NCBI GenBank assembly: GCA_965199935.1
Contig: CBDATD010000001.1
Location: 701,984-765,983, forward strand
Source: Bdellovibrionales bacterium
GTDB taxonomy: Bacteria; Bdellovibrionota; Bdellovibrionia; Bdellovibrionales; UBA1609
Direction of reading: 5' to 3'
DNA length: 64,000 nt
The notes below the pieces were generated by a model. It was not told the origin of the DNA and searched no databases. It was given only the letters and a program-made list of their open reading frames with translations. The translations under genes were made by a program, and so were the position numbers. The stretch's first letter is position 1. The number at the start of each line of letters is the position of its first letter. Below, one piece after another: positions 286-26,582 of this stretch.

Positions 286-444
286 ACTTGTTTTTAAAAA
301 AGAAGCAAAATTTACAAAAACCGGACAGACAGAGTTGACAGCCTCTGCTCCTGGAGATTCTGTAGAGTAAGAAATTCTGTGTCAACATGGGCCGGACGGT
401 ATGCTGAGCTTTTGAATTTAAGCCTGTGAAAACAAAATCCATTC

Positions 445-2703
445 TTATATTTTCTGAATGTTTACAGAGTAGGATTTTTCTTTGAAATGAATTGGATTTT
501 GATCTGAATTCTCCTCCATCTGTTTTTTAATTTTTGTAAAGTATTTGAATCTTCCCGTCCAAGTGTTCAAGTTTGACGGTTGCATCAAATTTTTTTCCAG
601 ACAAGTGAGAGTTAATGTTTTTTTGGCTCGGGTCATTGCGACGTAAAGAAGACGGTCTTGTTCTAAAAGGTGTTCTGATTTTTTAGAATTTTTCCACAAC
701 TTTTGCTGTACGGAATAAAAAGCCTCTTTGTTTTCATTGTAAAGGGAAAAACCCCATCTTTGATCCTCAGAGGAGACCACAAGCCGATCAGAGTCTGGAG
801 GGATCAATGGCGCATCCACGCTGGGGATGATCACATGTTCAAATTCCAGCCCCTTGGATTGGTGAATAGTCATGAGCTGAATGAAGTTAAGAAGAGGTGA
901 AGAGATGCCTCCCTCACTTGCGCTAAATGTTTTAAATTGGTGAAGCTTTTCTTCTACAAACTGGTAGTATGTGAAATGAATATTCTGTTCTTTTATTTTC
1001 ATTTCTGTAAGAAGGCTCCATAGATTATTTTCCCGTTCTCCAGAAGGGTCTTGACGATGACAAAGGTCAATGACGAGATGGTCTTCCAGAAAAGAAGAGA
1101 AAGCTTCAGAAATTCCCTCTTGCCTGCTTTTTTTCATCAAGGTATTTAAAGCTTTAATTGTTGGATGAAGTTTCATCTCTTGATTCAAATTGACCCATAA
1201 GGGGCGGTCTTTTTTGGAGTGTAAAGCAATTTCCCAATCAGGGAGATAAAGATAAGGAGTCCTTAAAAGTCCAATAAGATTCATAGTATCCAATGGATTG
1301 ATTAAGAATTTTAAAAAGAAAAGGGCGTCAATAATTTCTCTTTTCAGCGTATTTTGAGAATGAATTTGAACAGGGAGCTTGAGTTTTTTTAAAAAATACC
1401 CTGTGTTTATAACGTCTTGATTGGTTTTTTGCAAAACGCATATATGCCCAGGAGGGCTGTTTTTTAAAAGTTGTTGAAGTTTTTGAGCAACGGCGTTTTT
1501 TTCGTCTTGATTGTTTTCGCAAATAAGAAACTGTACAGCGCTTTCTTTTGTTTGACTCTCTTTTTTTCCGGGAGTCATTGGATGAAAATCTGCTCCAAAA
1601 AAATTATTAAAAAACTCAATCAGGTGAGTATGGGATCTAAAATTTTTATTTTTTACCTCCAAAACTCCTTGAGCTTTTGTTTTCTCCATTCTTCGCTTAA
1701 AGACATTTGGATCCGCCTTTCTAAATAGATAAATACTTTGCTGAGGGTCCCCCACCACCCAGAGTTTTTCAGCCTTTTGGGTGAAAGCGTTCAATATCTT
1801 TTCTTGAACGTGATTGATATCTTGGTATTCATCAATAAACCAGGCCCTCCATTCTTTGGAAAAGGCGGAAACAGAGGGTTCTTTTTTTTGTATTATTTGC
1901 AGTGTTTTGCTTTCCAAATCCTGCATTTGAATAAAACCCTGTTTTTCTTTAATCTCCCCCCAATGGCTGTGAAAATTTTGAACTAGCTTATGCAGAAGGA
2001 GAAAGTGATCTTCCAGTTTTTTAAAATTTTTAGGATGGCAGGCCGTAAATAATTTGTCAAAAAGAGAAGCAGATGTTTTATCTGGAATTTCTTTTTTGTA
2101 TTTAATAAACTTCTCTTGAAGATTATCTAAATCAGAAAGGTCTATTGAAAAGTTCGTTTGAGTAATGGATTGAAATGTCTTTGACCATTGTTCACACATT
2201 TCTTGTTTAGATAGAGGCTGAAAATGAATCAGGTCTTCTTTATGCTGAAGAATCAGTTTTAAAATTTCATCATACTTATAATGCTCCATTAGGGGGATAT
2301 AGGAGGGGTCCGATTCAAAAAGATCTTTAAGAGCTGTGCGGGCGGAAGATTCAATTTGCCTCTCATTGATGATATGAGAAAAGGAAAACCAGCGGGGATG
2401 GTATTTTTTTAAAAAATAATAAAGTATTCCATGAAGAGTAGAGATGAAAATTTGAGATGTATCTGAAACAGCATTCACCAGCTCCCAATTTTTTTCTTTA
2501 ACAGCGTACTTCATCATTCTCTCCTTAACCTCTCCGGCGGCTTTTCTGGTAAAGGTGGTAATCATAATGCGTATAGGTTTTTGACTCTTTTCTTTGAATG
2601 AATGCATAGATTGAATCACTTGTTGAATTAAATGAGTGGTTTTCCCTGCTCCAGCAGCAGCCTGCAGGGTGTAGTGTTTTAATTGAGATGAGGGGCTCGG
2701 CAT
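445..2703 (-). CDS. UvrD/PcrA/AddA-type superfamily-1 helicase without a C-terminal nuclease domain
   Basis: Helicase motifs seen: AAAGAGKT (Walker A), FIDEYQD, VVGDPQQSIY, KNFRS, TIHQSKGLEFEHVIIP, LLYVAMTRAKKTLTL. The protein ends about 65 aa after motif VI. The start is probably the internal Met (MPSPSS) at 2703, which overlaps the upstream gene. Confidence 0.75.
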   Translation of the reverse strand: MPSPSSQLKHYTLQAAAGAGKTTHLIQQVIQSMHSFKEKSQKPIRIMITTFTRKAAGEVKERMMKYAVKEKNWELVNAVSDTSQIFISTLHGILYYFLKKYHPRWFSFSHIINERQIESSARTALKDLFESDPSYIPLMEHYKYDEILKLILQHKEDLIHFQPLSKQEMCEQWSKTFQSITQTNFSIDLSDLDNLQEKFIKYKKEIPDKTSASLFDKLFTACHPKNFKKLEDHFLLLHKLVQNFHSHWGEIKEKQGFIQMQDLESKTLQIIQKKEPSVSAFSKEWRAWFIDEYQDINHVQEKILNAFTQKAEKLWVVGDPQQSIYLFRKADPNVFKRRMEKTKAQGVLEVKNKNFRSHTHLIEFFNNFFGADFHPMTPGKKESQTKESAVQFLICENNQDEKNAVAQKLQQLLKNSPPGHICVLQKTNQDVINTGYFLKKLKLPVQIHSQNTLKREIIDALFFLKFLINPLDTMNLIGLLRTPYLYLPDWEIALHSKKDRPLWVNLNQEMKLHPTIKALNTLMKKSRQEGISEAFSSFLEDHLVIDLCHRQDPSGERENNLWSLLTEMKIKEQNIHFTYYQFVEEKLHQFKTFSASEGGISSPLLNFIQLMTIHQSKGLEFEHVIIPSVDAPLIPPDSDRLVVSSEDQRWGFSLYNENKEAFYSVQQKLWKNSKKSEHLLEQDRLLYVAMTRAKKTLTLTCLEKNLMQPSNLNTWTGRFKYFTKIKKQMEENSDQNPIHFKEKSYSVNIQKI

Positions 2704-5339
2704 ATATTCCTCCAATGGCAGTTTGTGCATATTTTTCGATTGAAAGGATTGGCTTGAAAGATATTTTTTTTAAGATTTAAAATGTTTTGCTGTATGGATT
2801 GGTCGATATTTTTTAAAATGACGTCCTTTTTCTCCGTTTCCACAGCCCCCCTAAAGGAAGGAGAGAGTTTTTTACATTCAGAATCTTTAGATATAAAGCC
2901 TTTTGATTTAAAATCTCTATAAGATAAATAAAGGGCTGAGGACACTTTTGCTTGATTTTTCAGTAAGGACACAGCTCCTATGTAAAGAGGCATTTGGAAA
3001 TCCAGGTGCTTTTCCCAATGAGGGATGTTCACATAACCGGCAAGTGAAGATTTGTAATCAATGATTAGATATTCGTTGTGGAAACGGTCCACACGGTCTA
3101 TTCTCCCCTCGATGAGAATGTCCCCTTCTAAATCTAATTTTTCTTTTTTCAAATTCCAATAGACTTTGAAAGGCCACTCTGTGTCTATAGTTTTAATTGA
3201 GCTTATTAATTGAGTTATTTTTTTTTCATTTTCTATGAATTGAACAGCTTTTTTGAAAAATTGTTGTGAATAGGACTGATGCAGATGCTTGTTTGAGGTG
3301 TTAAAATTTATGGACTGAATCAAGTTTAAGATATCTTCTTTATTTTGAATGTTGTTTTTTTTAATCTGATGAAACAGTTTATGTATAATTTTCCCATAGT
3401 CCTTATAGTCCAAATCTATGTCTTGATAAGACATTTCTTTGAGATGAAAAATATTTTTGGACAAAAAGATAAAAGGGCAAACAGCGTAATCTGTAATTTT
3501 AGAAGGGGAAAGCTGTTTAATGGGAATTTTCTGATCTGAAGGCCATTGTCTTTCTGGATGAAGGACGTCTATTGTTTCAGGAGAATACAAAGAAGATTTG
3601 TTCAAAATGTCTTTTATGGGCTGTTGTTGAAGGACACTCCACGCTGTACGGGCCGGCGGATTGTCTTTGACTTGAAAGTTTGTTTTAGAATGCTCCAAAA
3701 GCCAAATTCTTGAGGGAGTTAAACTTTTTCCGTCGAAACTAGTTTCGCTGTAACTGAGAGTCAGAGGTCCGTCAAATGCATTAAGGAAATGAACAATTTC
3801 ATACTCTCTTTGGCTGGGGTCCAGGGTGAGACAGTGAAATCCCAAATCCTGCAGGATTTGTCTGCCTTCCTGTTCGCTTAAGAAGGCGTGAGGAGCTTGA
3901 CGGCAGGACAGGTGGTCTAGTCCTATGAAAAACGCTTGTTTTGCGCGGAGACTTGTTATGGCATTGACACTCAATAATTCCACACCTTGATTTTGCCGGC
4001 TTGGAATATGAAATTCTTCTTGAATTAATTCATTTTCTAGAATTTCCATCCAATCTTCAATAGAAGATTTTTCAAATGTATTGTTTGAGGAAGATATTCT
4101 ATGGAGTGTTTTATTCAAACATTCATTTAATGCTGGATGGGGTTGATTTTTAATAATGGAGCTCCAAAAGTGATGGATCCAATGAACAAATTCATTCACA
4201 AGGAGAAATTTTTTTGATTTATTTTGTTTTGGAAAAGGGAAATCTTTTATATCTTTATCTCGATCACAGTAATAATATTTTGACTTCATTTGAGATATAT
4301 CTTGTGTTTTTTGATGGAGATTGAGGATTGCTGTCATATTTTCAAAAGAAATTTTTCCTGCGTAAAAATGAAGAAGAGAAAGCCATGTTTGTATTTGAGG
4401 AAAAGAGAGGAGAGGCGCTCTAACTCCTTTTTTGAGAGGGATATTTTCTTTTTTGAGATAGCTTTTTAGACAGGGCCAGTAAAGCTCAATATCAGGAGCA
4501 ATGACAGCCAGCTCAGAAGGCTGTCTTCCATTTTTTATAGAGAGGCTTAATTGTTCGGTGATAAAACGTACTTCTTCCAACATTGTTTGAAATTTTCTCA
4601 CTTGTTTTTGATGAACATTCTTTTTTTCAGCAAGAAGTGATTTTTTTTCGCGAGGGCTTTGAATGAGAGAATAAACATAGTGAGAGTTGGAATAGAGGGG
4701 GTTGTTGAGCGGAGGAGGCATTAGCAGTACGACGTCCTGTGTGGAGCTTAAAGCTGTTACAACTGCGGCCTCCACAGAATCTATAGTAAAGCTCAAATCA
4801 ATGATGAAGGGGTTGTTTCCATTTTTTAAAATCTGATCGACAAGAAGGTATTTTGTTAATGATTTTTCAATCAGTTTGTTTTTTTTCAGTTCCGCCCAAA
4901 ACTCTTTGGCAGGCTTGTACCAATGCACCCAACCGGCTTTCTTTGAGAACTGCTGTATCCACATTTCAAAGGAGGCGGGTCCCTCCGGATGATTGAAAAA
5001 CGGCAGAAAAGTATGCAGACTGTGTAAAATTGTTTGATGGCTTGGAATATTTTTGAGCCACGTATAATTAGTTTTTTTAATATAGTTTTTAAAAAGAAGC
5101 TCCATCTGGGCTGAAGAGATGAACCGATAGTTTGGGTGGTTGGATTTAAACAAGCCGCAGTAGAGGTCGCCTGCCCTCCGAATAAAATCTGTGCGAGAAC
5201 GAGGGTGTTTTTCGAGAAAAAAATTTTGAAACTGGATTTTGGATTTAATATCAGAAACTATATACAAACCTTTTGTTGAAGCAGTCTTCAAGTAAGGCAC
5301 GCGGTCTTCAAATGTTGAAACCTCCACTTTTTTAAGCAA
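2679..5339 (-). CDS. AddB-like PD-(D/E)xK nuclease subunit with Fe-S cysteine cluster
   Basis: C-terminal RecB-type nuclease motif (GRIDRVDR...LIIDYKSS). One upstream Cys (YAVCPF) plus a terminal CTNCHWRNIC triad, as in AddB Fe-S staples. No Walker A at the N-terminus. Overlaps the helicase gene downstream. Confidence 0.65.
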   Translation of the reverse strand: MLKKVEVSTFEDRVPYLKTASTKGLYIVSDIKSKIQFQNFFLEKHPRSRTDFIRRAGDLYCGLFKSNHPNYRFISSAQMELLFKNYIKKTNYTWLKNIPSHQTILHSLHTFLPFFNHPEGPASFEMWIQQFSKKAGWVHWYKPAKEFWAELKKNKLIEKSLTKYLLVDQILKNGNNPFIIDLSFTIDSVEAAVVTALSSTQDVVLLMPPPLNNPLYSNSHYVYSLIQSPREKKSLLAEKKNVHQKQVRKFQTMLEEVRFITEQLSLSIKNGRQPSELAVIAPDIELYWPCLKSYLKKENIPLKKGVRAPLLSFPQIQTWLSLLHFYAGKISFENMTAILNLHQKTQDISQMKSKYYYCDRDKDIKDFPFPKQNKSKKFLLVNEFVHWIHHFWSSIIKNQPHPALNECLNKTLHRISSSNNTFEKSSIEDWMEILENELIQEEFHIPSRQNQGVELLSVNAITSLRAKQAFFIGLDHLSCRQAPHAFLSEQEGRQILQDLGFHCLTLDPSQREYEIVHFLNAFDGPLTLSYSETSFDGKSLTPSRIWLLEHSKTNFQVKDNPPARTAWSVLQQQPIKDILNKSSLYSPETIDVLHPERQWPSDQKIPIKQLSPSKITDYAVCPFIFLSKNIFHLKEMSYQDIDLDYKDYGKIIHKLFHQIKKNNIQNKEDILNLIQSINFNTSNKHLHQSYSQQFFKKAVQFIENEKKITQLISSIKTIDTEWPFKVYWNLKKEKLDLEGDILIEGRIDRVDRFHNEYLIIDYKSSLAGYVNIPHWEKHLDFQMPLYIGAVSLLKNQAKVSSALYLSYRDFKSKGFISKDSECKKLSPSFRGAVETEKKDVILKNIDQSIQQNILNLKKNIFQANPFNRKICTNCHWRNICRAPHLN

Positions 5340-5931
5340 GACTCTCCTCCTTTATCAAAGAGAATTTTTTTAATATCTTTTCTGCCTGCCGCTCCAATTC
5401 AATTAAAGTGCCGTTATTTTCAACCACCATGTCTGATCTTTTAATTTTTGTCTTTGGATCTTCTTGAGAGTTTATACGCATTTGAGCGGATTTTTCGGAA
5501 AGATGAAGTTTTTTTGTAATTCTTTCTCTTTGCAATTTTTGGGAGCAAATGACTAAAATAATCCAGTTGAAGCGGGATGACGAATGAGTTTCAAATAATA
5601 ATGGGATTTCATAAAAAATATGAGAGTGTTTTTTTAACTTTTTTTCTTCTTCTTGGATGCATTTAAAAATATAGGGATGCACGATAGATTCAAATTGCCG
5701 CTTTAGGGTGTTATTGGAAAAAATTTGTTGTGCAATTTCTTTAGAGGACAGGTTTTCACCGGATTTTTTTTGGAAGAGTTTCAACAAAGATGGATAAAGC
5801 GGTGAGTGTTTTGACAGAGCTTTTCGGGCTTGTTTATCTGCTGAAATCACAGGGTTTCCCCGATTTTCAAAAAAGCGGCATAGACTGGATTTTCCAGCTC
5901 CTATACCTCCAGTCACAGCAATTTTTATCAT
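5332..5931 (-). CDS. coaE: dephospho-CoA kinase
   Basis: N-terminal MIKIAVTGGIGAGKSS P-loop; about 200 aa. Start taken at the internal Met rather than the ORF-track start at 5952. Confidence 0.8.
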   Translation of the reverse strand: MIKIAVTGGIGAGKSSLCRFFENRGNPVISADKQARKALSKHSPLYPSLLKLFQKKSGENLSSKEIAQQIFSNNTLKRQFESIVHPYIFKCIQEEEKKLKKHSHIFYEIPLLFETHSSSRFNWIILVICSQKLQRERITKKLHLSEKSAQMRINSQEDPKTKIKRSDMVVENNGTLIELERQAEKILKKFSLIKEESLA

Positions 5932-16734: not shown

Positions 16735-16820
16735 TGGTGGAGAGAGTAGGATTCGAACCTACGTAGGCATAAGCCAGCGGGTTTACAGCCCGCCCCTTTT
16801 AACCGCTCAGGCATCTCTCC
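16735..16820 (-). tRNA. tRNA-Tyr (anticodon GTA), CCA encoded
   Basis: Reverse complement: GGAGAGATGCCTGAGCGGTTAAAAGGGGCGGGCTGTAAACCCGC...GGTTCGAATCCTACTCTCTCCACCA. It has a 7-bp acceptor stem, a long variable arm and a CT-GTA-AA anticodon loop. Confidence 0.9.
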
Positions 16821-16823
16821 TCA

Positions 16824-16896
16824 AGCTGGGTAAGGGACTTGAACCCCCAACCTGCTGATTACAAATCAGCTGCTCTGCCAATTGAGCTAACCCAGC
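16824..16896 (-). tRNA. tRNA-Thr (anticodon TGT)
   Basis: Reverse complement: GCTGGGTTAGCTCAATTGGCAGAGCAGCTGATTTGTAATCAGCAGGTTGGGGGTTCAAGTCCCTTACCCAGCT. Clover-leaf pairs by eye; CCA is not encoded. Confidence 0.9.
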
Positions 16897-16974
16897 ATTC
16901 AGGCTATTATACTCATAAAAACCTTTTGACGTGTAGTTTTATGAAATATTTTTCGTTCAAAAACTTAAAGCCTA

Positions 16975-17685
16975 TTACTTATCCAGCAAATGCTTATAAA
17001 GATCTTCTTCTATAGGGATGCGAATTTCTTGGCTGGAAGAAGAAGAACTCCATTCTAAAACAGCATTTTCAATTAAAACCAAAGGTCTTCTTTCACGCCC
17101 CTCACCCATAAGCCAGACAGCGCTGCCGGCTAAAGCATCTACATTATTTATAGCAGTGACTTTTAATTCTCTGCCATAAAGATCTGGCTCTCCTCGAAGG
17201 TCTTTAACCGCCTTAAAACCCCAGTGTGCTACAGCCGCTCCGATGACCCCCCTTCTTAAAGGAGTGGTGTGGGAATCTGTCATTAGAAGCCCTAATTTTT
17301 TTAGAGACCAGCGCTGTGTTAAAGCCTGCCATAATTTTTTTAGAGACAAGTAAGGGTTTTTTGGAAAAAGCAGATACCCCCCCGTAGGGGAATTGGATTG
17401 ATCTATTCCAGCGGAAGGCAAGAGCAGACCTGCTTTTATGGTGAGGTGATGTCCGTAAGAGCTTTCACCTAAATCTTTGTCTGCTTCTTGTTGAATTAAT
17501 TGTTTTTTATCTGTGGTTTGCACCACACGTTTTTCAGCCAGGCTGAACAATTTAGATGAGACCGCCAATACTGATTTTTCTTTAATGGAAAAGCCGGTTA
17601 AAGAAGACAAAATAAACTTCTCAAGGTCTTCCCCTTGTTGGAGTAAAGCTGTTGTGATCGGGGTGATTTTTAAAGAAGAGTTCAT
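16975..17685 (-). CDS. CofE/FbiB-like gamma-glutamyl ligase family protein (F420_ligase fold)
   Basis: VSSKLFSLAEKR, SAGIDQSNSP and LMTDSHTTPLRRGVIGAAVAHWGF resemble the CofE family motifs as I remember them. Confidence 0.5.
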   Translation of the reverse strand: MNSSLKITPITTALLQQGEDLEKFILSSLTGFSIKEKSVLAVSSKLFSLAEKRVVQTTDKKQLIQQEADKDLGESSYGHHLTIKAGLLLPSAGIDQSNSPTGGYLLFPKNPYLSLKKLWQALTQRWSLKKLGLLMTDSHTTPLRRGVIGAAVAHWGFKAVKDLRGEPDLYGRELKVTAINNVDALAGSAVWLMGEGRERRPLVLIENAVLEWSSSSSSQEIRIPIEEDLYKHLLDK

Positions 17686-17691
17686 AAGATT

Positions 17692-18975
17692 TTATTTGGT
17701 AATAAAATTTTTCCAAGAAGCCATTTGATGATAAGGCATTCCGGTTTGAATCAAAATACCCCCCTGGGACTGTTCTGTTTTGTGGATTTTAATTTGTTGA
17801 GAGAGAGAGTGCATCAGAGAGGCGTCGCTGTGGGGAAAAAACAGCTCTACTTTTTTATTTAGACTTGAGTAAGCCCGCTTCATTTCCTTCAAGAGGCAGG
17901 GAACACCCTGCCCTGACAGAGCAGAAACTTTTGCATGAAAGGCAGTAGGGGGGCGTTGAAAAGTTTTACAGACTTGGTCCATCTTATTGTACACATGAAT
18001 AATTGGTTTTTCATTCCATCTAAACTCTCTAATCAAAGAATTGACCACACTCATCTGCTCCTTCATGTTAGGGTTGGAGGCGTCGATAACGTGCAGTAAT
18101 ACATCTGCACAGGCCGATTCTTCCAGAGTGGCTTTGAAAGCTGAAATAAGATGAGGAGGCAGGTCTTTAATAAAGCCCACTGTGTCTGTTAAAACGGACG
18201 CACTCAAGCCGGGAATAAAAACTTTTCTTGTTGCAGGGTCTAAAGTTAAGAATAATTGATTCTCTGTTTCTGCTTTGGATCGGCTGAGGCGGTTTAAAAG
18301 AGTGCTTTTTCCTGAATTGGTGTAGCCGATTAAAGCAAAGCTTCGAACTTGATTTCTTTGTCTGAGTTTCCTTTGCTGGGATCTGTTCTTTCTTAAAGTT
18401 TGCAGTTTTTTTCTTAAAAAGCGGATTCTTTTTTGAATTTGTCTGCGGTCTGTTTCCAATGCTTTTTCACCAGGTCCTCTGGCTCCCAATCCTCCCCCTT
18501 GTCTGGAAAGAGAGCCAAGCCAGGCTCCCTTGGTTCTGGTCAGCTCGTCCAATTTTTGAGCCAGGCTCACTTGTAATTGTCCTTCATAACTGCGGGCGCG
18601 GTCTGCAAAGATTTTTAAAATCAGCTGATTTCTTTCCCATATGGGTACTTTAAGTATGTTGTTCAAGTTGCGTGCTTGAACACCTGTCAAACGGCCGTTA
18701 AAAATAATTAAGTTGGCTTTTGTTTCAAGAATCATATCTTGAATTTCATGAATTTTGCCCGATCCAAGGTAAGTGCTGTGATGGATTCTATTTTGTTTTT
18801 GACTAATAGCTCCAAGAACTTCAATTCCTGCTGAGTCTGCAAGCTCTTTCAATTCTCTTAGTGGAGCTTTATTTTTTTGTAAGTCAGTAAGCACTAAAAT
18901 AGTTTTTAAATTTTGTTTTCTCAAATGCCTCATCTGTCGTATCAAATTTGCATCCCCGTCAATAAAATACATCAT
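17692..18975 (-). CDS. hflX: GTPase HflX
   Basis: N-terminal HflX domain followed by a G domain: GYTNSGKSTLLNRL (G1), LTDTVGF (G3), NKMD (G4). Confidence 0.9.
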   Translation of the reverse strand: MMYFIDGDANLIRQMRHLRKQNLKTILVLTDLQKNKAPLRELKELADSAGIEVLGAISQKQNRIHHSTYLGSGKIHEIQDMILETKANLIIFNGRLTGVQARNLNNILKVPIWERNQLILKIFADRARSYEGQLQVSLAQKLDELTRTKGAWLGSLSRQGGGLGARGPGEKALETDRRQIQKRIRFLRKKLQTLRKNRSQQRKLRQRNQVRSFALIGYTNSGKSTLLNRLSRSKAETENQLFLTLDPATRKVFIPGLSASVLTDTVGFIKDLPPHLISAFKATLEESACADVLLHVIDASNPNMKEQMSVVNSLIREFRWNEKPIIHVYNKMDQVCKTFQRPPTAFHAKVSALSGQGVPCLLKEMKRAYSSLNKKVELFFPHSDASLMHSLSQQIKIHKTEQSQGGILIQTGMPYHQMASWKNFITK

Positions 18976-19106
18976 TGATTGTACTTTAAAGCAGGGATTC
19001 TACCAAGCCGGCTTACCCTTTAGTCAATATTTTAAAGAAAGTAAAGAGATTGATCTAAAGCTTGATAAAAGGTATAGTCGCTGTCCGTTTGTTGGAGGAG
19101 GGGTTT

Positions 19107-19562
19107 ATGAGTATTTCTGAATCAGATAAAAAAAATATTGCGGCGGGGCTGTTTCCCGTTTTAGCGGATCACTATGCTCTTTACTTAAAGATGCAGGGAT
19201 ATCACTGGAATGTTGTGGGGCCTTCTTTTTACGCTCTTCACAAGCTTTTTGGGAAAAAATATCAGAGTTTAGCAAAAGATGTGGACGAGATTGCCGAAAG
19301 AATTCGGGCGTTAGGCCCTAAGATTTCAGCGTCTTTTTCTGAGTTTCAAAAACTAAGCTCCATTCAAGATGGTTCAGCAGATTTAGAGGCTAAGGATATG
19401 ATCGTTGATTTGGCGAAAGGATATGAAATTTTAATTCAGGGAATTGAAAAAGTTTTTGACATTGCTGAAAAAGCGGGAGATCAGGCCACTATGGATTTGT
19501 TGACGTCTCTTTTAAGCTCGCATGAGCAAACATTGTGGGGGTTTAAGAGTACATTGCAATAA
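19107..19562 (+). CDS. dps: Dps-family DNA-binding ferritin-like protein
   Basis: HWNVVGPSFYALHKLF and DEIAERIRALG motifs. Start set at the ATG preceded by GGAGGAGG; the track start at 19062 is probably too far upstream. Confidence 0.85.
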   Translation: MSISESDKKNIAAGLFPVLADHYALYLKMQGYHWNVVGPSFYALHKLFGKKYQSLAKDVDEIAERIRALGPKISASFSEFQKLSSIQDGSADLEAKDMIVDLAKGYEILIQGIEKVFDIAEKAGDQATMDLLTSLLSSHEQTLWGFKSTLQ

Positions 19563-19572
19563 TTTGAGGTTA

Positions 19573-19648
19573 GCGGAAGTAGCTCAATTGGTAGAGTATC
19601 AGCCTTCCAAGCTGAGGGTTGCGGGTTCGAGACCCGTCTTCCGCTCCA
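19573..19648 (+). tRNA. tRNA-Gly (anticodon TCC), CCA encoded
   Basis: GCGGAAGTAGCTCAATTGGTAGAGTATCAGCCTTCCAAGCTGAGGGTTGCGGGTTCGAGACCCGTCTTCCGCTCCA. Confidence 0.9.
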
Positions 19649-19754
19649 TGCAGGAGCTTGACCAACGCTTGAAGGTATCGGATACTGTGCAGGTATTCTC
19701 CTGTGTCTCAGGAAGGGACGCGTCAGGTTTGATGTGAAAGCGGGCGGCTGATTC

Positions 19755-20372
19755 ATGATGAAATTTTACCTCCACCTTATCCTCATCTTCATCCTGTCCT
19801 ATGTCTTGTTAAGCAATTGCACTCCACAAACACAAGATTCATATCAAGCATCTGAAGAAGAAGAAATCGAAGAGGAAGACAGCGAGATTGGAGCTAGGAG
19901 CAACAGCAGTAGAAGAAGCGCCAGAAGAAGAGGCAGAAGCAACGGGGGAGGAACATCATCTACGGGAGGAACATCTACAGGAGGAACATCATCTACGGGA
20001 GGAACGTCATCTACGGGAGGAACATCATCCACAGGGGGAACATCTACAGGAGGAAGCCCGGCATCTTGCGGTTGGAGTTTTGATTATTCAGATGTAGATT
20101 GGGATGCCTCATACACCCCTATAGACAGCTTTGAATGTGTTCGATGCGTTGATGACGGCCACTACCTTGGGACTTTTCATTTCTACAAATGCAATCAAAA
20201 GTTTTCCAGTAGAATACACCACTGTATAGACGAAGAACTAGGGCAGTCCACAATTGACAGTATTTCACGTTTTAGATGCAGTAAAACCAACAGCAGTTGG
20301 TCGTGTTCAGAACTTTCCAGCGACCGATATTATGACAGTTTTATCGACTGCTTAAGAGATGAAAGAGTTTAA
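19755..20372 (+). CDS. lipoprotein with acidic stretch, GGTS(S)T tandem repeats and Cys-rich C-terminal domain
   Basis: Lipobox LLSNC. EEEEIEEEDSE, an RR-rich stretch, then GGTSSTGGTSTGGTSSTGGTSSTGGTSSTGGTSTGG. The C-terminal ~110 aa contain 10 Cys. Confidence 0.55.
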   Translation: MMKFYLHLILIFILSYVLLSNCTPQTQDSYQASEEEEIEEEDSEIGARSNSSRRSARRRGRSNGGGTSSTGGTSTGGTSSTGGTSSTGGTSSTGGTSTGGSPASCGWSFDYSDVDWDASYTPIDSFECVRCVDDGHYLGTFHFYKCNQKFSSRIHHCIDEELGQSTIDSISRFRCSKTNSSWSCSELSSDRYYDSFIDCLRDERV

Positions 20373-20395
20373 AATCTTTTTAAATTTTGGCGGGT

Positions 20396-20938
20396 TTAGG
20401 GGGTCTTATGACACCGCCCGGATCTTTTTTCTGAGTCTGTCATATAAGGCAGGCACACTCTTATGAAATTTCCGTCCCCGTAACCTTGATAAACCACCAT
20501 TCCCTGTTGATCGTAAACCGTTTGGGTGAAGGACACCACTCTTCTGTTTTTGTGCTGAACGATTAACACCTGGCCGTTGTCTAATTCAGCTGTAAAAGTA
20601 TCTGTTGGAGTGTCCGGCCGGCTGGTGCTGATAAATGGAATGTTTTTTTGACTAAGAAAACTTACCGATATTTCATTATTGGAGTGAACAGTGATAGAGC
20701 AAGACTCTCCCGTGCTTTCTGATCCTACAAAGAGTCTTTGAAAAAAATCTCTGGCTGGTACAGAAATACAGCCGGAAACTGTTTCTTCCTTAAGCCTTTC
20801 TGTATCCGCCGGTGGATTTTGCAGCAAATTCCGGATTTTGTTTTTTGTGAGTGGAAAAATAGAGTCTGTAGAGTTTTGAGTTACAGAACTCGTACAACCG
20901 AGCAAGGACGCGAAATAAAAAAATAAAAGAAACTTCAT
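20396..20938 (-). CDS. lipoprotein, unknown function
   Basis: Internal Met gives MKFLLFFYFASLLGC (lipobox). No motif recognised. Confidence 0.5.
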   Translation of the reverse strand: MKFLLFFYFASLLGCTSSVTQNSTDSIFPLTKNKIRNLLQNPPADTERLKEETVSGCISVPARDFFQRLFVGSESTGESCSITVHSNNEISVSFLSQKNIPFISTSRPDTPTDTFTAELDNGQVLIVQHKNRRVVSFTQTVYDQQGMVVYQGYGDGNFIRVCLPYMTDSEKRSGRCHKTP

Positions 20939-21322
20939 ACCCTTACATTCTACCGTATTTTCCATTAAATGTTAGTCTTTTATCACACTATATTTCTGCT
21001 TATTTGTTCATTTCTTGTGCGTCATTCTATTATCTTTCTCAGTATGTTATGCTCCTGACCTCTTAAAAAGAGGTTAAAGAGAGAAAAGCTCCTTAAAAGA
21101 GCATCTAACAAAGAGAGATTTCTTGCGCTCTCAGAGCATTTTGACAACAGCTTGAGTGTTTGGAGCCTCTCCTTGTGAGGGATGAGAAAAAGAATTTTTT
21201 GAAAGAGTTTGTTAAGAAGATGAAAAAAAGATCAGTAATATCAGTTAGTTGCAAAAAATATTGAGTTGGTGTCAACCTTTTGATACCAATGATGAAGATT
21301 TAAAAAGAAGAAGGGCCGTTCA

Positions 21323-21796
21323 GTGAATCAGCAAATAACAATTCATCTCAATAAAAAAGATATGGGATTCCCTTATCCGGTGACAGGAGGAGGCTCTAAG
21401 TCTTTGGAAAGTTTCAGAGGAAAAAATCTAGTTTTGTATTTTTACCCTAAAGACCATACTCCGGGCTGTACGAAAGAGGGGCATGAATTTACAGCCCTTC
21501 ATAAAGAGTTTTTGAAACATAATACTCAGATTATTGGAGTCTCTAGAGACAGTCTTTCATCCCATGAGTCTTTCAAACTTAAACAAAAATACAGTTTTGA
21601 TTTGATTAGCGATAAAGAGGAAAAACTTTGCAGGCTTTTTAAAGTTTTGGAAAAAACGGATGAAGGCAGGCATAGACTTGTTCGAAGCACTTTTGTTCTA
21701 AATTCTAAAGGGCGGGTGGTTTATGCAAATAGAAAAGTAAAAGTTCCCGGCCACGCCCGCTCTGTTTTAGACTTTGTAAAAGAAAACCTCACCTAA
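21323..21796 (+). CDS. bcp: peroxiredoxin, Bcp type
   Basis: YFYPKDHTPGCTKE peroxidatic Cys motif; 157 aa; GTG start. Confidence 0.85.
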   Translation: MNQQITIHLNKKDMGFPYPVTGGGSKSLESFRGKNLVLYFYPKDHTPGCTKEGHEFTALHKEFLKHNTQIIGVSRDSLSSHESFKLKQKYSFDLISDKEEKLCRLFKVLEKTDEGRHRLVRSTFVLNSKGRVVYANRKVKVPGHARSVLDFVKENLT

Positions 21797-21989
21797 AAAA
21801 AATGAGCTGTTGAAAAATCACATAATTTTTGTTTTGCTTTAAGACGCCCGATTTTTGCCCTATCGTCTAGATTCATCAGGGAGCTTTGAAAAAAATGGGG
21901 GGGGGTAGAGTAGAATTATATCTCATCTTTGTCTAATTTGTCTAAAGATGAGGCTGATACTTTTGGTTTTTTGAGGAGGTTTAAAAAAA

Positions 21990-22535
21990 ATGGATTTATT
22001 GAAGGCAGTAATTTTTTCTGTGATTTCGATGGCGCTTATCTCTTGCGGCGATAGAGGCGGCAAAGTAAAGGAAGCTGTTGAGATAGAAAATGGTGTATCT
22101 AAAGCAGAGGACGGGCGGATTATATTAAGCAGTGAATCCAAGCCTTTAGTGATGCCAGAAGGAGTCTTTAAAGGAGTCGAAGTTGACCCGAGAAAATTGG
22201 GTTCAGCTATAGCCGGCCGGCTCGATAGTGTCTCAACAGTATATGATATCTCTTTTGCATCCAGATTTTTTATTAGTGGTCTTGTTAGAGGAGGGGTATT
22301 TAATGTTGTATTTGCGGTTAGGACTCTCTCCGGTGAGGTTTACAGGAACATTAAGTGTATGGCTTACCCAGGAAAAGGAAAAGACGCTTTTTTGTGGATT
22401 GAGGACTGCAACAGTGGTCAAGTTAGGTTGGCATTTGCCTTAAAGCCTTATCGATTGAGAGACGTAGCTACTGATCTAGGACTGGAACAAATGCGGTCAA
22501 TAGCGGCGAAAAAATTTAAAAGAACTCTTGATTAG
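21990..22535 (+). CDS. lipoprotein, unknown function
   Basis: Signal peptide with lipobox MALISC. No motif recognised. Confidence 0.5.
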   Translation: MDLLKAVIFSVISMALISCGDRGGKVKEAVEIENGVSKAEDGRIILSSESKPLVMPEGVFKGVEVDPRKLGSAIAGRLDSVSTVYDISFASRFFISGLVRGGVFNVVFAVRTLSGEVYRNIKCMAYPGKGKDAFLWIEDCNSGQVRLAFALKPYRLRDVATDLGLEQMRSIAAKKFKRTLD

Positions 22536-22578
22536 GGGGCAAACCCTTATTTTTGCTCCTATTTAGAGTCTGTGGAAG

Positions 22579-23241
22579 ATGCATACTTTTCGTTTGTTTA
22601 TTTATGATCACTGCCCCTACTGTGTTAAAGCTCGGATGATCTTTGGTTTGAAAAACCAATCTTTGGAAAATGTCGTTCTGCTCAATGACGATGAGAAAAC
22701 CCCTTTCTCCATGATTGGACGCAAAATGGCGCCTATTCTGGAAAAAGAAAACGGAGAATTTATGCCGGAGAGCCTGGACATCATTAAATACATCGACAAT
22801 AAAACACCCCCTCCCCTAGTGGTTGAAGAAGAAGACCCGGTTCTTATGGAAATACTTTTTCAAGCACGCACGGATTATTATTCTTTAACTATGCCTCGAT
22901 GGGTTCAATCCAGCATGGAAGAATTTAAAACTGAATCTGCCCGCAAATATTTTCAAACTAAAAAAGAACAAATAATCGGCTCTTTTTCTTCAGCTTTGGA
23001 GCAGACAGAGCATTTTAAGACAAATGTTTCTAAAACTCTGGAAATTTTAGCCGGGCGGCTCTCCCCGACTTTTGAATGGTATAAAGGCAGTAAAATCAGC
23101 CTTAATGACTTTCATTTGTTTGCTTTTCTAAGAGGTTTAAGCGTTGTCAAAGACCTCTCATTTCCAGAGGTTTTAGAAGAATATGCTGTACGCACGTCGC
23201 AAAAAACCAATGTACCCCTTAGTACAGATACAGCCTGCTGA
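22579..23241 (+). CDS. grxB: glutaredoxin 2 (GST-like)
   Basis: N-terminal LFIYDHCPYCVKARM (CPYC active site) on a ~220-aa protein, as in Grx2. Confidence 0.75.
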   Translation: MHTFRLFIYDHCPYCVKARMIFGLKNQSLENVVLLNDDEKTPFSMIGRKMAPILEKENGEFMPESLDIIKYIDNKTPPPLVVEEEDPVLMEILFQARTDYYSLTMPRWVQSSMEEFKTESARKYFQTKKEQIIGSFSSALEQTEHFKTNVSKTLEILAGRLSPTFEWYKGSKISLNDFHLFAFLRGLSVVKDLSFPEVLEEYAVRTSQKTNVPLSTDTAC

Positions 23242-23295
23242 TTGTTTAAACTCGTTCCTAAAAATTCATAAACAAGCGATAATACCTGTACAATC

Positions 23296-23325
23296 TTGCA
23301 ATAATGTTTCATACTGGTTTAGACT
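23296..23325 (+). promoter_or_regulatory. candidate sigma70-type promoter (TTGCAA-N18-TAGACT) of lipoprotein paralog A
   Basis: The hexamers and spacing are conserved upstream of paralog B at 24216-24245. Followed by AGGAGG and the ATG. Confidence 0.35.
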
Positions 23326-23348
23326 CTAATTTGATCAGGAGGATTTTC

Positions 23349-23933
23349 ATGAAATGGATTTTTATTTGCGTGAGTTTTTTATTTCTTGCTTTTGGGTGCA
23401 GTAAACCGAGTGACAGCGAGTTAGAATCAGAAGCTGGAGAAGGAAATGATTCGTCTAATGTTGTTTCAGTAAACACCGGCTTGCAAAAAAGTACATCTGA
23501 TTTGTTGGCGGAGGAGGAAACAGCTGGCGCTGATGAAGAATTATCTTCAGAAACAGATGGGCCGGTTTCAAATGACTTTGAACAGCCTGCCGGAGCTGTG
23601 CCTGCTCGTTTGGAGTTAAATTCTTGCAGGGGGGATTTAACACAATTAAAACAGTCTTGTGAGTTTATGCCGGAGTGGTTGAAAAATGTTCAAGCTTCCG
23701 GCGAAGATGTCACCATTGAAAGAAATAAACATGGTGTGACAGTTGTTTGGAATAGCGGAACTTTTGAAGGGGGCTCCTTTAAAGGGTTGTGGAAAAACGG
23801 CTCTTGCAGAGGAGGTGTCATGGAGTCTGTGGTTTGGGACCAAGGTGTTTTTGATACCGGCTGTGTATGGAAGAACGGTCTTTGGAAAGATGGTGTTTGC
23901 CAGGCTGAAGACTGCAGTCACACTGTGAATTGA
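23349..23933 (+). CDS. lipoprotein paralog A: lipobox, acidic linker, conserved Cys/Trp/Gly-rich C-terminal domain
   Basis: The ATG at 23349 is preceded by AGGAGG. MKWIFICVSFLFLAFGC lipobox. The C-terminal ~105 aa are nearly identical to those of 24269-25159. Confidence 0.7.
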   Translation: MKWIFICVSFLFLAFGCSKPSDSELESEAGEGNDSSNVVSVNTGLQKSTSDLLAEEETAGADEELSSETDGPVSNDFEQPAGAVPARLELNSCRGDLTQLKQSCEFMPEWLKNVQASGEDVTIERNKHGVTVVWNSGTFEGGSFKGLWKNGSCRGGVMESVVWDQGVFDTGCVWKNGLWKDGVCQAEDCSHTVN

Positions 23934-23938
23934 AAAAA

Positions 23939-24010
23939 GCCCGTATAGCTCAGGGGTAGAGCGTACCCTTGGTAAGGGTGAGGACGTGAGTTCGAGTCTC
24001 ACTATGGGCT
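23939..24010 (+). tRNA. tRNA-Thr (anticodon GGT)
   Basis: GCCCGTATAGCTCAGGGGTAGAGCGTACCCTTGGTAAGGGTGAGGACGTGAGTTCGAGTCTCACTATGGGCT. The acceptor stem pairs with one G-T wobble. Confidence 0.9.
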
Positions 24011-24040
24011 CGGTTTCACGGGGGAAGTCTTGTGAGAGGC

Positions 24041-24083
24041 GGTAAAATGATCCACTCGGATCATTTCACCTAAGTTTTTTTTT
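24041..24083 (+). terminator. rho-independent terminator
   Basis: GGTAAAATGATCC-ACTC-GGATCATTTCACC forms a 13-bp stem with one mismatch, followed by TAAGTTTTTTTTT. Confidence 0.7.
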
Positions 24084-24159
24084 GTGGATTAGAGTTTCAT
24101 CCGAGTTGAGGATAAGAGAATCTGCGAGCTGTTTCGGCGTTTGCCTTCACAGCCCGCAG

Positions 24160-24188
24160 GGACGTGAGTTCGAGTCTCACTATGGGCT
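24160..24188 (+). repeat. orphan copy of the 3' 29 nt of tRNA-Thr(GGT) (att-like direct repeat)
   Basis: GGACGTGAGTTCGAGTCTCACTATGGGCT is identical to 23982-24010. No 5' half of a tRNA precedes it. Confidence 0.85.
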
Positions 24189-24215
24189 TAGTTCTACAGC
24201 GTCCTTGTAAAATTC

Positions 24216-24245
24216 TTGCAATAGCGTTTCACGCTGGTTTAGACT
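24216..24245 (+). promoter_or_regulatory. candidate sigma70-type promoter (TTGCAA-N18-TAGACT) of lipoprotein paralog B
   Basis: Same hexamers and spacing as 23296-23325. Confidence 0.35.
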
Positions 24246-24268
24246 GTAATTTAATCAGGAGGATTTTC

Positions 24269-25159
24269 ATGAGATTTCTGCTCATTTGTATAAGTGTTTT
24301 GTTTTTTGCTTTTGGGTGCGGCAAACCGGATGAGGATGAAACGCAGTCAGACGCCAAAGATCAAGAATCTCCGCCTAATCTTGTTTTTATAAAAACTGAA
24401 CCGCCAAAAAATGATCTGGATTTAGAAGATCAATTAAGAGGCGAGGAACCTGCTGAAAGACCTACAGCCTCTGAAGAAGAGGAGCAGACAATCTCCGCAG
24501 TTGAAAACAGCCCATTAGAAGACGCGCGAACGCCGACATCTGCTATTGAAAATCCACCGCCGTCTGCAGTTGAAGAACAAACAATCACTGCTGCTGCTAA
24601 GGAAGAGCAGATAGATATTTCTATTGAATCAGAGCCTCCAGATCTTCTTGCAGAGCAAACTAAAGCAGAAACTGAAACAGCAGAGCAAAGCACTGAAGAA
24701 GAAGGGGCAGTTGAAGAAGATGGATTAAATGATGGACAAATAGAAACTGCCGCTGTTGTTGGAGAAACAGAATTAAATCAGGCCGGCAGTGTTAAACCGC
24801 CTGCTGTTCAAATAGAAACTAAATCCTTTTTCCCTCTGGAGCCTGCTGTTTGCAGAGGAAACTTGGAGTGGTTGAAAAATTCTTGTGAGTTTATGCCGGA
24901 GTGGTTGAAAAATGTCCAAGCTAAGGGCGAGGACATCACAATCAAAAGAAGCAGGCACGGCATCACCGTCATTTGGAATAGCGGAATTTTTGAAGGAGGT
25001 TCTTTTAGGGGCCTGTGGAAAAACGGCGCTTGCAGAGGAGGTGTCATGGAGTCTGTGGTTTGGGACCAAGGTATTTTTGATACCGGCTGTAGATGGAAAA
25101 ACGGCCTTTGGAAAGACGGCATCTGCCAAGCTGAAGACTGCAGTCACACTGCGAATTGA
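24269..25159 (+). CDS. lipoprotein paralog B: lipobox, long acidic E/T/A/P-rich linker, conserved Cys/Trp/Gly-rich C-terminal domain
   Basis: The ATG at 24269 is preceded by AGGAGG. MRFLLICISVLFFAFGC lipobox. The C-terminus runs CRGNLEWLKNSCEFMPEWLKNVQAKGEDITI...WKNGLWKDGICQAEDCSHTAN. Confidence 0.7.
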   Translation: MRFLLICISVLFFAFGCGKPDEDETQSDAKDQESPPNLVFIKTEPPKNDLDLEDQLRGEEPAERPTASEEEEQTISAVENSPLEDARTPTSAIENPPPSAVEEQTITAAAKEEQIDISIESEPPDLLAEQTKAETETAEQSTEEEGAVEEDGLNDGQIETAAVVGETELNQAGSVKPPAVQIETKSFFPLEPAVCRGNLEWLKNSCEFMPEWLKNVQAKGEDITIKRSRHGITVIWNSGIFEGGSFRGLWKNGACRGGVMESVVWDQGIFDTGCRWKNGLWKDGICQAEDCSHTAN

Positions 25160-25397
25160 AAAAGACTCGGTTCACATTACAAAGATGGAGCCTTTTGAAA
25201 GGTCCGGTTTTTTGGGACTGAGATTTGATTTTTTTGTTGATAAAAGGCAAAATTGAGCGTAGAGTGACGGCTTTTGCACCGCCAATTCTTAAGAGACGGC
25301 ACGAAATTCAAGGTTTTTTTGCTTGTAATTGTTTGTGGTTGCTTGTCTTTTTACGATTTGGTCAAAAAATTAACGAAAAATCGGAGGTTCAGCTGTA

Positions 25398-26582
25398 ATG
25401 GCAAAAGAAACATTTCAAAGGACGAAGGAGCATATCAATGTTGGTACTATTGGTCATGTGGATCACGGGAAAACCACTCTAACTGCGGCGATCACTGCTG
25501 TACTTGCCAAAAAAGGCGGCGCCCAGGTGATGAAATACGATGACATTGATAAAGCTCCCGAAGAAAAAGCGAGAGGTATTACTATTTCCACAGCTCACGT
25601 TGAATACGAGACAGAAAAACGCCACTACGCTCATGTGGACTGTCCGGGCCATGCTGATTATGTCAAAAACATGATTACAGGAGCCGCTCAAATGGATGGC
25701 GCCATCCTTGTGGTTTCAGCGACGGACGGGGCTATGCCTCAAACAAGAGAGCATATTTTGCTCGCTCGTCAAGTGGGGGTTCCGGCTATTGTGGTTTATT
25801 TGAATAAATGTGATCAAGAGAGCGATCCTGAAATGCAGGAAATTGTGGAAATGGAGCTTAAGGATTTGCTGAGTAAATACGAATTTCCAGGGGATAAAAT
25901 TCCTATCGTTAAAGGTTCTGCGCTCAAAGCTCTTGAAGGGGACGAAAAATTTGAAAAGTCTATTTTAGATTTGATGTCCGCTGTGGATTCTTATATTCCT
26001 TCTCCAAAAAGAGACAAGGAAAAACCTTACTTGATGCCTATTGAAGATGTCTTTTCTATTTCCGGCCGCGGCACTGTGGTGACAGGGCGTATAGAAAGAG
26101 GAATTGTAAAAATCAATCAAGAGGTGGAAATTGTCGGCATCAATGAAACAAAGAAAACAGTAGTGACAGGAATTGAAATGTTCAGAAAGCAATTGGATCA
26201 AGGAGAGGCTGGAGACAATGCTGGTTGTTTGCTGAGGGGTATTGACAAAACAGATGTGGAGAGAGGACAGGTGCTGGCCGCACCCGGCTCCATTACTCCT
26301 CATAAAAAGTTTAAGTGCCAGTGCTATGTATTAACCAAAGACGAAGGAGGAAGGCATAAAGCTTTCCACAATGGATACCGTCCGCAGTTTTATTTCCGTA
26401 CGACAGATGTGACGGGTTCAATTAGTTTGCCTAAGGGGACAGAGATGGTCATGCCTGGAGACAATGTCAGTATGGATGTGGAGCTTATTTCCCCTATTGC
26501 GATGGAAAAAGGTTTAAGATTTGCAGTTCGAGAGGGCGGACGCACGGTGGCTTCAGGGGTCGTTTCTGAAGTTGTAGAGTGA
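25398..26582 (+). CDS. tuf: elongation factor Tu
   Basis: [22 protein letters not shown]; 394 aa; GGAGG RBS. Confidence 0.98.

Follow-up and report, generated by a model that had tools for sequence, protein, structure and literature searches.

Organization of the tRNA-Thr/tuf locus

Within the window, by which we mean the whole 64,000-nt stretch analysed, an intact tRNA-Thr(GGT) gene lies on the plus strand at 23939–24010 (65.4 bits against the Rfam tRNA model; ARAGORN gives 23939–24011). It is preceded by Grx2 (22579–23241) and by lipoprotein paralog A (23349–23933, plus strand; 194 aa, lipobox LAFGC), an ORF for which we found no Pfam family and which occupies the ancestral position between Grx2 and tRNA-Thr, where relatives have a single paralog. 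Downstream come a 149-bp spacer (24011–24159, plus strand; hereafter X), an orphan fragment of the tRNA 3′ end, lipoprotein paralog B (24269–25159, plus strand; 296 aa), which is an ORF duplicated from A, and tuf, encoding EF-Tu (25398–26582, plus strand), the ancestral downstream neighbour of tRNA-Thr; tRNA-Trp and secE-nusG-rplKAJL-rpoB follow. A tuf promoter-like site, TTGATA-17-TAGAGT (25237–25265, plus strand), lies within a conserved leader, ATTTTTTTGTTGATAAAAGG, that is kept in five of the compared loci (L005, L008, L010, L019 and L006). The locus corresponds to the universal tRNA-Thr/tuf junction, enlarged by additional DNA on either side of the tRNA.

The EF-Tu of the window is 96–97% identical to that of metagenome-assembled genomes (MAGs) titled Bdellovibrionales, and two MAGs of that EF-Tu group are complete chromosomes of 1.28–1.40 Mb. 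The canonical order thrU-tyrU-glyT-thrT-tufB, with tRNA-Thr directly upstream of tuf, is the ancestral state here and still stands in L009, L007, L006 and L016. The window's clade differs from it: the cluster has been disrupted, with Thr(TGT)-Tyr inverted and approximately 7 kb of redox and small lipoprotein genes, a repeat-bounded spacer and paralog B inserted. In the window, the canonical Thr(TGT)-Tyr-Gly-Thr(GGT)-tuf cluster is split over 16735–24010, with Thr(TGT)-Tyr on the opposite strand; the ~7 kb inserted between the tRNAs encode a ferritin/Dps-like protein, a peroxiredoxin of the AhpC/TSA family and Grx2, as well as three small ORFs, each having a hydrophobic N-terminus and an early Cys (19755–20372, with GGTSST repeats; 20396–20965, minus strand; and 21990–22535).

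An exact repeat of the tRNA 3′ end

The 29-mer GGACGTGAGTTCGAGTCTCACTATGGGCT occurs in the window as two exact copies, both on the plus strand, at 23982–24010 and 24160–24188; no further copy was found in the window at ≤3 mismatches, and none in 100 shuffles. The first copy covers tRNA positions 45–73 (the end of the variable loop, the T arm, the 3′ acceptor strand and the discriminator), and the second, located by exact repeat search, is the orphan tRNA-Thr 3′ fragment. It starts at tRNA position 45, which is 4 nt 5′ of the T stem GTGAG/CTCAC, a 5-bp inverted repeat around the 7-nt T loop. Across lineages the repeat reads GG(A/C)CGTGAGTTCGAGTCTCACTATGGGCT. A diverged copy of the tRNA trailer (TAGTTCTACAGCG..., 24189–24207, plus strand) follows the fragment and resembles the trailers of relatives (CGGTTCTACAAAAG and TGTTTCTACGAAGG). 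No duplicated end was seen for any of the window's five other tRNAs. Repeat search, ARAGORN and Rfam together bear out the first-pass annotation in describing an orphan tRNA 3′ fragment that lies downstream of the intact gene in matching orientation, with a 149-bp interval (24011–24159) between the two exact 29-bp copies.

Distribution of the fragment among relatives

The first-pass annotation had proposed aligning relatives to see whether any of them carry an island between the repeats. Alignment of relatives revealed an orphan shared across lineages and no occupied site: in none of those examined (L005, L008, L010, L017 and L019) does an island lie between the repeats. In the outgroups L016 (from the sister lineage at 88% EF-Tu), L006, L007 and L009, tRNA-Thr is followed directly by tuf, with neither repeat nor paralog, and the trailers are too diverged to align with the trailer of the fragment. 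Locus L008/L017 runs from Grx2 through one paralog, the tRNA and a homologous spacer to the orphan, which is followed by more DNA, a third partial copy (TATGGGCTCGGTT) and the tuf leader, without B; the run of Ns in L008 is a real 100-N scaffold gap in its source assembly, L017. Loci L010, L011 and L012, from three samples, have a hairpin described below (hp3), the orphan and a diverged trailer, and then directly the tuf leader, again without B; the L012 sequence begins inside the fragment, and the tRNA of L010/L011 was read from L002, with L002 and L010 treated as one organism by assumption.

Other members of the group hold different DNA at this site. Locus L005 has the spacer without the orphan, together with a 21-nt copy of the tRNA end plus its own trailer adjoining the tuf leader, so that a further partial copy TATGGGCTCGGTT abuts the leader in L005 as it does in L008/L017. 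In L019/L020 the spacer hairpin and the orphan are both absent, and the site is filled by an orphan ORF of 92 aa and by tandem repeats. In L021/L022, HipBA and an AAA_14/DUF4143 ATPase lie ahead of tuf, and tRNA-Thr is absent there. From L019, with its ORF and tandem repeats, and L021, with HipBA ahead of tuf, we infer that the tRNA-Thr/tuf spacer is a hot spot of rearrangement and insertion.

The left junction, ...GCAGG|GG(A/C)CGTGAG, is common to the window, L008/L017 and L010/L011, with hp3 abutting the same base. This shared junction indicates that the fragment goes back to the clade's ancestor, that it disappeared on more than one occasion and that it is independent of B; judged from these alignments, it arose in that ancestor, before B, and is shared by at least three lineages.

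Several additional features were observed at these loci. L019, whose EF-Tu is the closest to that of the window, carries its 92-aa ORF at 2801–3079, with no Pfam family, and approximately 2.5 tandem copies of a ~45-nt unit, AAAAAGCCCATTCCGAAGAC.TA.GTGA.ACTTTTGTGGT, at 3170–3300. L021/L022, a deeper lineage of the EF-Tu cluster, holds the HTH_3/HipA toxin-antitoxin pair and the AAA_14/DUF4143 ATPase at 300–3227. The third tRNA-end copy is immediately preceded by three to four direct repeats (AGGAATGAC/AGGAATGGC/AAGAATGG), at 2735–2800 of L017 and at ~1555–1590 of L005 (minus strand); these could be integrase arm-type sites or slipped copies of ATGGGC. A metagenome scan with a 24-mer returned one canonical Bdellovibrio-type locus and nothing else.

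Probable concerted evolution of the fragment and the tRNA

Between paralogs A and B, 11 of the 29 four-fold degenerate sites are substituted (JC distance 0.53), and at that divergence a neutral 29-mer at least as old as the A/B pair would be expected to carry ~7.7 changes, where none is observed (P(0) ~5e-4). Because the fragment is older than this much-diverged pair, its perfect identity to the tRNA needs explaining, a point that the first-pass annotation missed.

Comparison across lineages shows where the identity begins and ends. In L002/L010 the repeat is 64 nt long, and its tRNA part matches at 29/29 positions, compared to 26/35 in the adjoining trailer part. The identical tract measures 29 nt in the window, 31 nt in L002/L010 (within the 64-nt repeat), at least 55 nt in L008/L017, where it stops at the scaffold gap, and 21 nt in L005. 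Between lineages the fragment differs at one site only, and its flanks have visibly diverged. That site is tRNA position 47, where the outgroups have T, the clade C and the window A; the tRNA/orphan bases are A/A in the window and C/C in both L008/L017 and L010/L011, each orphan carrying the base of its own genome. Likewise, the partial copy in L005 repeats that genome's own trailer variant, ATGGGCTCGATTCTAAA(A)TGG, which is present in both copies.

Lineage variants shared by the copies, diverged flanks and variable tract ends are thus all found here, as under concerted evolution, and the identity of the orphan is most likely to reflect gene conversion or unequal exchange. Recurrent short-tract conversion or unequal exchange between the close repeats would overwrite the orphan from the tRNA, and the tRNA copy would itself be held constant by selection, leaving the orphan with no function of its own. 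Nearby repeats such as duplicated tuf genes and rRNA operons evolve in concert through the same two processes. As in those systems, copies within a genome are closer to each other than orthologues are between species, lineage variants appear in both copies and tract lengths vary; the differences are that the tract here is 29 nt and that the partners are an essential single-copy tRNA gene and a non-coding relic. An identity of 29 bp is near the lower limit for RecA-dependent exchange, so upkeep by conversion alone is not guaranteed.

A decayed pseudo-tRNA-Thr lies ahead of tuf at 5796–5862 of L013 (and also in L015), in the sister lineage at 88% EF-Tu. ARAGORN makes no call there, the alignment score is 43 versus a maximum of 27 in 500 shuffles, and no functional tRNA-Thr was found within 6 kb upstream. 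This dead tRNA-Thr has the look of unprotected decay, which contrasts with the preserved orphan.

Origin of the repeats

We consider the chances about even that the orphan belongs, as its second member, to a set of direct repeats of the tRNA-Thr(GGT) 3′ end that subdivides the tRNA-Thr-to-tuf spacer in one small-genome, Bdellovibrionales-like clade, left by one or more ancient insertions and homogenized by conversion. For the repeats themselves, an integrase is the best-supported source, at roughly an even bet. The repeats would go back to one or several ancient insertion events in the T-arm region of tRNA-Thr, of the type that tRNA-targeting tyrosine integrases carry out: the incoming DNA would have restored the tRNA's 3′ end and pushed the old end downstream, and the inserted element would have been lost since. 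The repeats and the short homologies around them would then have turned the spacer into a rearrangement hot spot.

Orientation, side and a start by the T stem all match the tyrosine-integrase signature, and in relatives the repeat extends into the tRNA trailer. The segments between repeat copies (X, Y in L017, and B in the window) are mutually unrelated on inspection, which favours insertion over simple tandem duplication, and tRNA-trailer-like sequence flanks B on both sides. In agreement with the first-pass annotation, which had reported no integrase in the window, a Pfam scan of 27 window ORFs brought up no integrase, transposase, excisionase or phage gene, and the related loci likewise showed no integrase, excisionase or phage gene. 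We also considered a phage or viral attP and rejected it, since no viral contig contained the 29-mer or the 24-mer and spacer X had no phage match. With no integrase, phage match or island surviving, an integrase origin is something we infer rather than observe, and the identical tract varies by lineage, so no single conserved recombination core can be defined. The first-pass suggestion of a nearly deleted former island holds as the best account of origin; two of its points need revision, in that the event is old and common to at least three lineages of the clade, and that the 149 bp are conserved structured sequence rather than debris.

The main rival needs no integrase at any stage. Slippage or unequal exchange would have copied the tRNA 3′ end together with its trailer in the clade ancestor, and deletions, insertions and conversions would have followed. 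We regard this as possible, though on balance unlikely. It fits the lack of any mobile-element trace in the window-ORF, viral and spacer searches, the fact that the repeats are clearly recombining now, and the copying of A to B, which demonstrates short-homology rearrangement at this very locus. Such a duplication should, however, yield two copies of X, and the DNA past the second repeat copy (trailer and tuf leader in L010, Y in L017) is unlike X on inspection. It also leaves unexplained why the repeat starts at the same tRNA position, by the T stem, where integrases cross over, and why several nested copies bound different DNA, which is a product of tandem integration.

Conserved hairpins and the possibility of a function

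Spacer X aligns with L008, L005, L003, L002 and L017 and is conserved. Its first hairpin, hp2 (24041–24083 with its T run, plus strand), folds as 13 bp (24041–24053 pairing with 24058–24070), and its helix is 98.5% paired over five lineages, with three compensatory pairs. The second, hp3 (24121–24160, plus strand; RNAalifold), abuts the fragment, overlapping its first base, and shows six compensatory pairs between the window and L017 (RNAalifold). By this covariation, X is conserved structured sequence and not the debris of a deletion.

The first-pass annotation had placed a strong terminator at 24041–24083. A terminator-like hairpin is indeed present in the window, with a 13-bp stem, 4 nt and nine U (nine T at 24075–24083), and it is plausibly the terminator of the tRNA in this genome, although a consensus terminator scan makes no call. 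The T run is confined to the window's version and missing from L008, L005 and L002, so the conserved part is the stem and not the terminator signature. We rejected hp2 as a dispersed REP-like or phage-derived palindrome because it has no other copy in the window; apart from the palindrome itself, the 15 viral contigs matching it have nothing in common with the locus, which makes them chance matches.

Conserved structure beside the fragment raises the alternative that the fragment is functional in its own right, either as the tRNA-like 3′ module (T arm and acceptor strand) of a structured RNA of ~180 nt (hp2, hp3 and the fragment) transcribed downstream of the tRNA, or as a processing or protein-binding signal, its identity being kept by selection. 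The hairpins are conserved through three and six compensatory changes, the base at which hp3 meets the fragment is the same in three lineages, and the fragment is perfectly conserved where its trailer is not; given the strong covariation in the adjoining hp3, the fragment may act as RNA. GCCCGCA (24152–24158) could, in the window alone, pair with TATGGGC, so the fragment could form an acceptor/T-arm minihelix (24152–24188) as an alternative to hp3. We rejected a minihelix or hidden tRNA of this kind because the 5′ partner strand belongs to hp3 and is absent in L008 and L010, and because its fold in wider context is no better than that of shuffled sequences (z −0.37). The same heptamer, on the 3′ strand of hp3, corresponds at six of seven bases to the tRNA's own 5′ acceptor strand, in this lineage only.

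Weighed as a whole, independent function is doubtful. L019 has lost the fragment, as has L005 save for its separate partial copy adjoining the tuf leader, and both are inside the clade. The fragment tracks the variable base of the tRNA, which is unexpected under a function of its own, and it precedes B's −35 element and lies far upstream of the tuf promoter. These losses, the tracking of position 47 and the upstream placement make selection on the orphan itself less likely. Rfam gives no match, and the T run of hp2 in the window counts further against a function, as transcripts would probably stop before reaching the fragment. A functional RNA derived from a tRNA 3′ external transcribed spacer exists in Escherichia coli, 3′ETS-leuZ. 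It likewise comes from conserved structured sequence directly downstream of a tRNA gene and probably co-transcribed with it; at the present locus any stable RNA, target or function would be hypothetical, and the parallel serves as a lead for the functional reading.

A broader form of this idea, to which we give a still lower probability, takes the repeats and the two covarying hairpins as one maintained module: a ~180-nt RNA ending in a tRNA-like T-arm/acceptor, or a repeat-bounded slot beside tuf that exchanges lineage-specific genes. Identity would then be selected and would not be a by-product of conversion.

Paralog B is younger than the fragment

As the first-pass annotation had noted, B starts 80 nt past the fragment; its ATG is at 24269. 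The upstream region of B (24208–24268, plus strand) was copied from that of A and forms an 81% direct repeat with 23294–23413. It contains a promoter-like −35 TTGCAA (24216–24221), an 18-nt spacer, a −10 TAGACT (24240–24245) and the RBS AGGAGG, and this promoter-like region is also kept upstream of the single paralog of relatives (comparison with L002, L003 and L004). A and B are 81% identical upstream and 85% in the C-terminal coding part; their C-terminal domains are 82% identical to each other and 58–71% to any other family member, the range for B's domain being 58–69%. As A and B are mutually closest, B is a recent duplicate of A that arose within the lineage of the window.

The A/B homology starts at ~24208, approximately 20 nt past the fragment, in trailer-like sequence (...TCCTTGTAAAATTCTTGCAA), and ends a few bases past the B stop, where trailer-like sequence resumes and leads into the tuf leader. 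At the junctions, short stretches of homology (GTCTTG-type to the left and G-C(C/T)CG to the right) point to an illegitimate event assisted by homology. Just past the B stop, CTCGGTTCAC (25166–25175, plus strand) resembles the tRNA end and trailer (compare GGGCT|CGGTTTCAC after the tRNA) and is plausibly orthologous to the third repeat copy of L005 and L017, the alignments being ambiguous. We also considered retroposition of an RNase P-trimmed A mRNA, an idea based on the A/B homology ending at the 5′ end of the tRNA; an RNA-mediated copy is ruled out because B's copy includes the −35/−10 promoter region.

The second reading of the first-pass annotation was that the fragment arrived together with B in one segmental duplication, and the 80-nt spacing and the 81–85% identity of B and its upstream region to those of A speak for it. 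This reading fails and is now highly improbable: L008/L017 and L010–L012 carry the fragment without B, which places the fragment before B, itself a younger in-lineage copy of A; the A/B homology begins only ~20 nt past the fragment; and at A the gene has the tRNA downstream of it and not upstream.

The paralogs have features of their own. B is 296 aa in the window (24269–25159) and 311 aa in L001 (7221–8156), an independent assembly introduced below, owing to an indel in an acidic EEGAVEE-type repeat region, and paralog A lacks ~100 aa of acidic linker relative to all other family members. The C-terminal domains (A, 23625–23930; B, 24851–25156) are Cys/Trp/Gly-rich and ~100 aa long, with no Pfam family, no PDB sequence match and no Foldseek PDB match at E<1; an AlphaFold model of the domain is mostly beta, with a pLDDT of 94.7 from only five sequences. 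A profile search with the domain against 1.84 billion representatives gave 259 matches at E≤1e-3, only five of them close, and many of the remaining matches were very large proteins with 5–11 matched stretches each, six of which likewise had no Pfam family. Given 5–11 stretches per large protein, the C-terminal domain appears to be an undescribed repeat (W-x-x-G-x-F/W-x-x-G).

The fragment is neither a second tRNA gene nor an assembly artefact

Sequence identity alone could speak for an overlooked second tRNA gene or for an assembly artefact; tRNA searches and independent assemblies rule out both, leaving either with next to no probability. At the fragment, Rfam (RF00005) finds no tRNA even at E≤10, nor does ARAGORN, and a cloverleaf lacks its 5′ acceptor strand, D arm and anticodon arm. 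In three lineages, tRNA positions 1–43 do not resemble the 60 nt that precede the fragment (p 0.4–0.6), in line with the first-pass annotation, which had seen no matching 5′ half. L001, an independent ENA assembly of the same species as the window and 99.6–99.9% identical to it overall, contains the repeat identically. From the tRNA to the start of B, it agrees with the window at 331 of 331 positions despite SNPs elsewhere and the 15-aa difference in the length of B, and this reproduction of the region indicates that the repeat is not an assembly artefact. The arrangement recurs, in species-specific versions, in L008/L017 and L010/L011, and L012 holds the 3′ part of the fragment.

Comparison with tRNA-integrated islands

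Islands and prophages integrated at tRNA genes by tyrosine integrases, with their attL/attR repeats, were reportedly described by Reiter in 1989 and Williams in 2002. The present locus shares with such attL/attR pairs an intact tRNA followed by a displaced, same-orientation 3′ fragment that starts by the T stem, a repeat that in relatives passes the tRNA end, and nested copies as in tandem arrays. It differs from them in that integrase, cargo and attP element are absent, the interval is 149 bp of conserved structured sequence, and the repeat is old and clade-wide rather than strain-specific and stays identical rather than decaying.

We judged island membership by the criteria of Islander, in which a 3′ fragment was found in 3,760 of 3,919 islands, a T-stem-region site in 1,836 and tandem arrays in 125 cases (PMC4383910). 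The locus has an intact tRNA with a cognate, same-orientation 3′ fragment downstream. The start of that fragment (tRNA position 45, 4 nt 5′ of the T stem) is compatible with the Islander T-stem class, whatever the true crossover point. The interval contains no integrase, being 149 bp without an ORF, and neither an occupied site nor an attP element was seen in the relatives and viral contigs examined. The feature resembles an attL/attR repeat, yet without integrase or cargo and with an interval of 149 bp it does not qualify as an island. It is best filed as an ancient att-type scar turned into a conversion-homogenized repeat within a rearrangement hot spot: a feature of an ordinary kind with an unusual history, and not the edge of a recent island.

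If the fragment does prove functional, it would add a tRNA-derived structured RNA element beside tuf. The locus shows how a conserved tRNA-Thr/tuf junction has become a rearrangement hot spot in a clade with complete chromosomes of 1.3–1.4 Mb, and how a lineage-specific lipoprotein gene was duplicated at that junction. A tRNA-end repeat may be exact without marking an island that is recent or active: here, a relic that predates the species is kept 'fresh' by concerted evolution, so the identity of the repeat cannot date an integration. The main interest of the locus is its clean demonstration that repeat identity does not imply recency.
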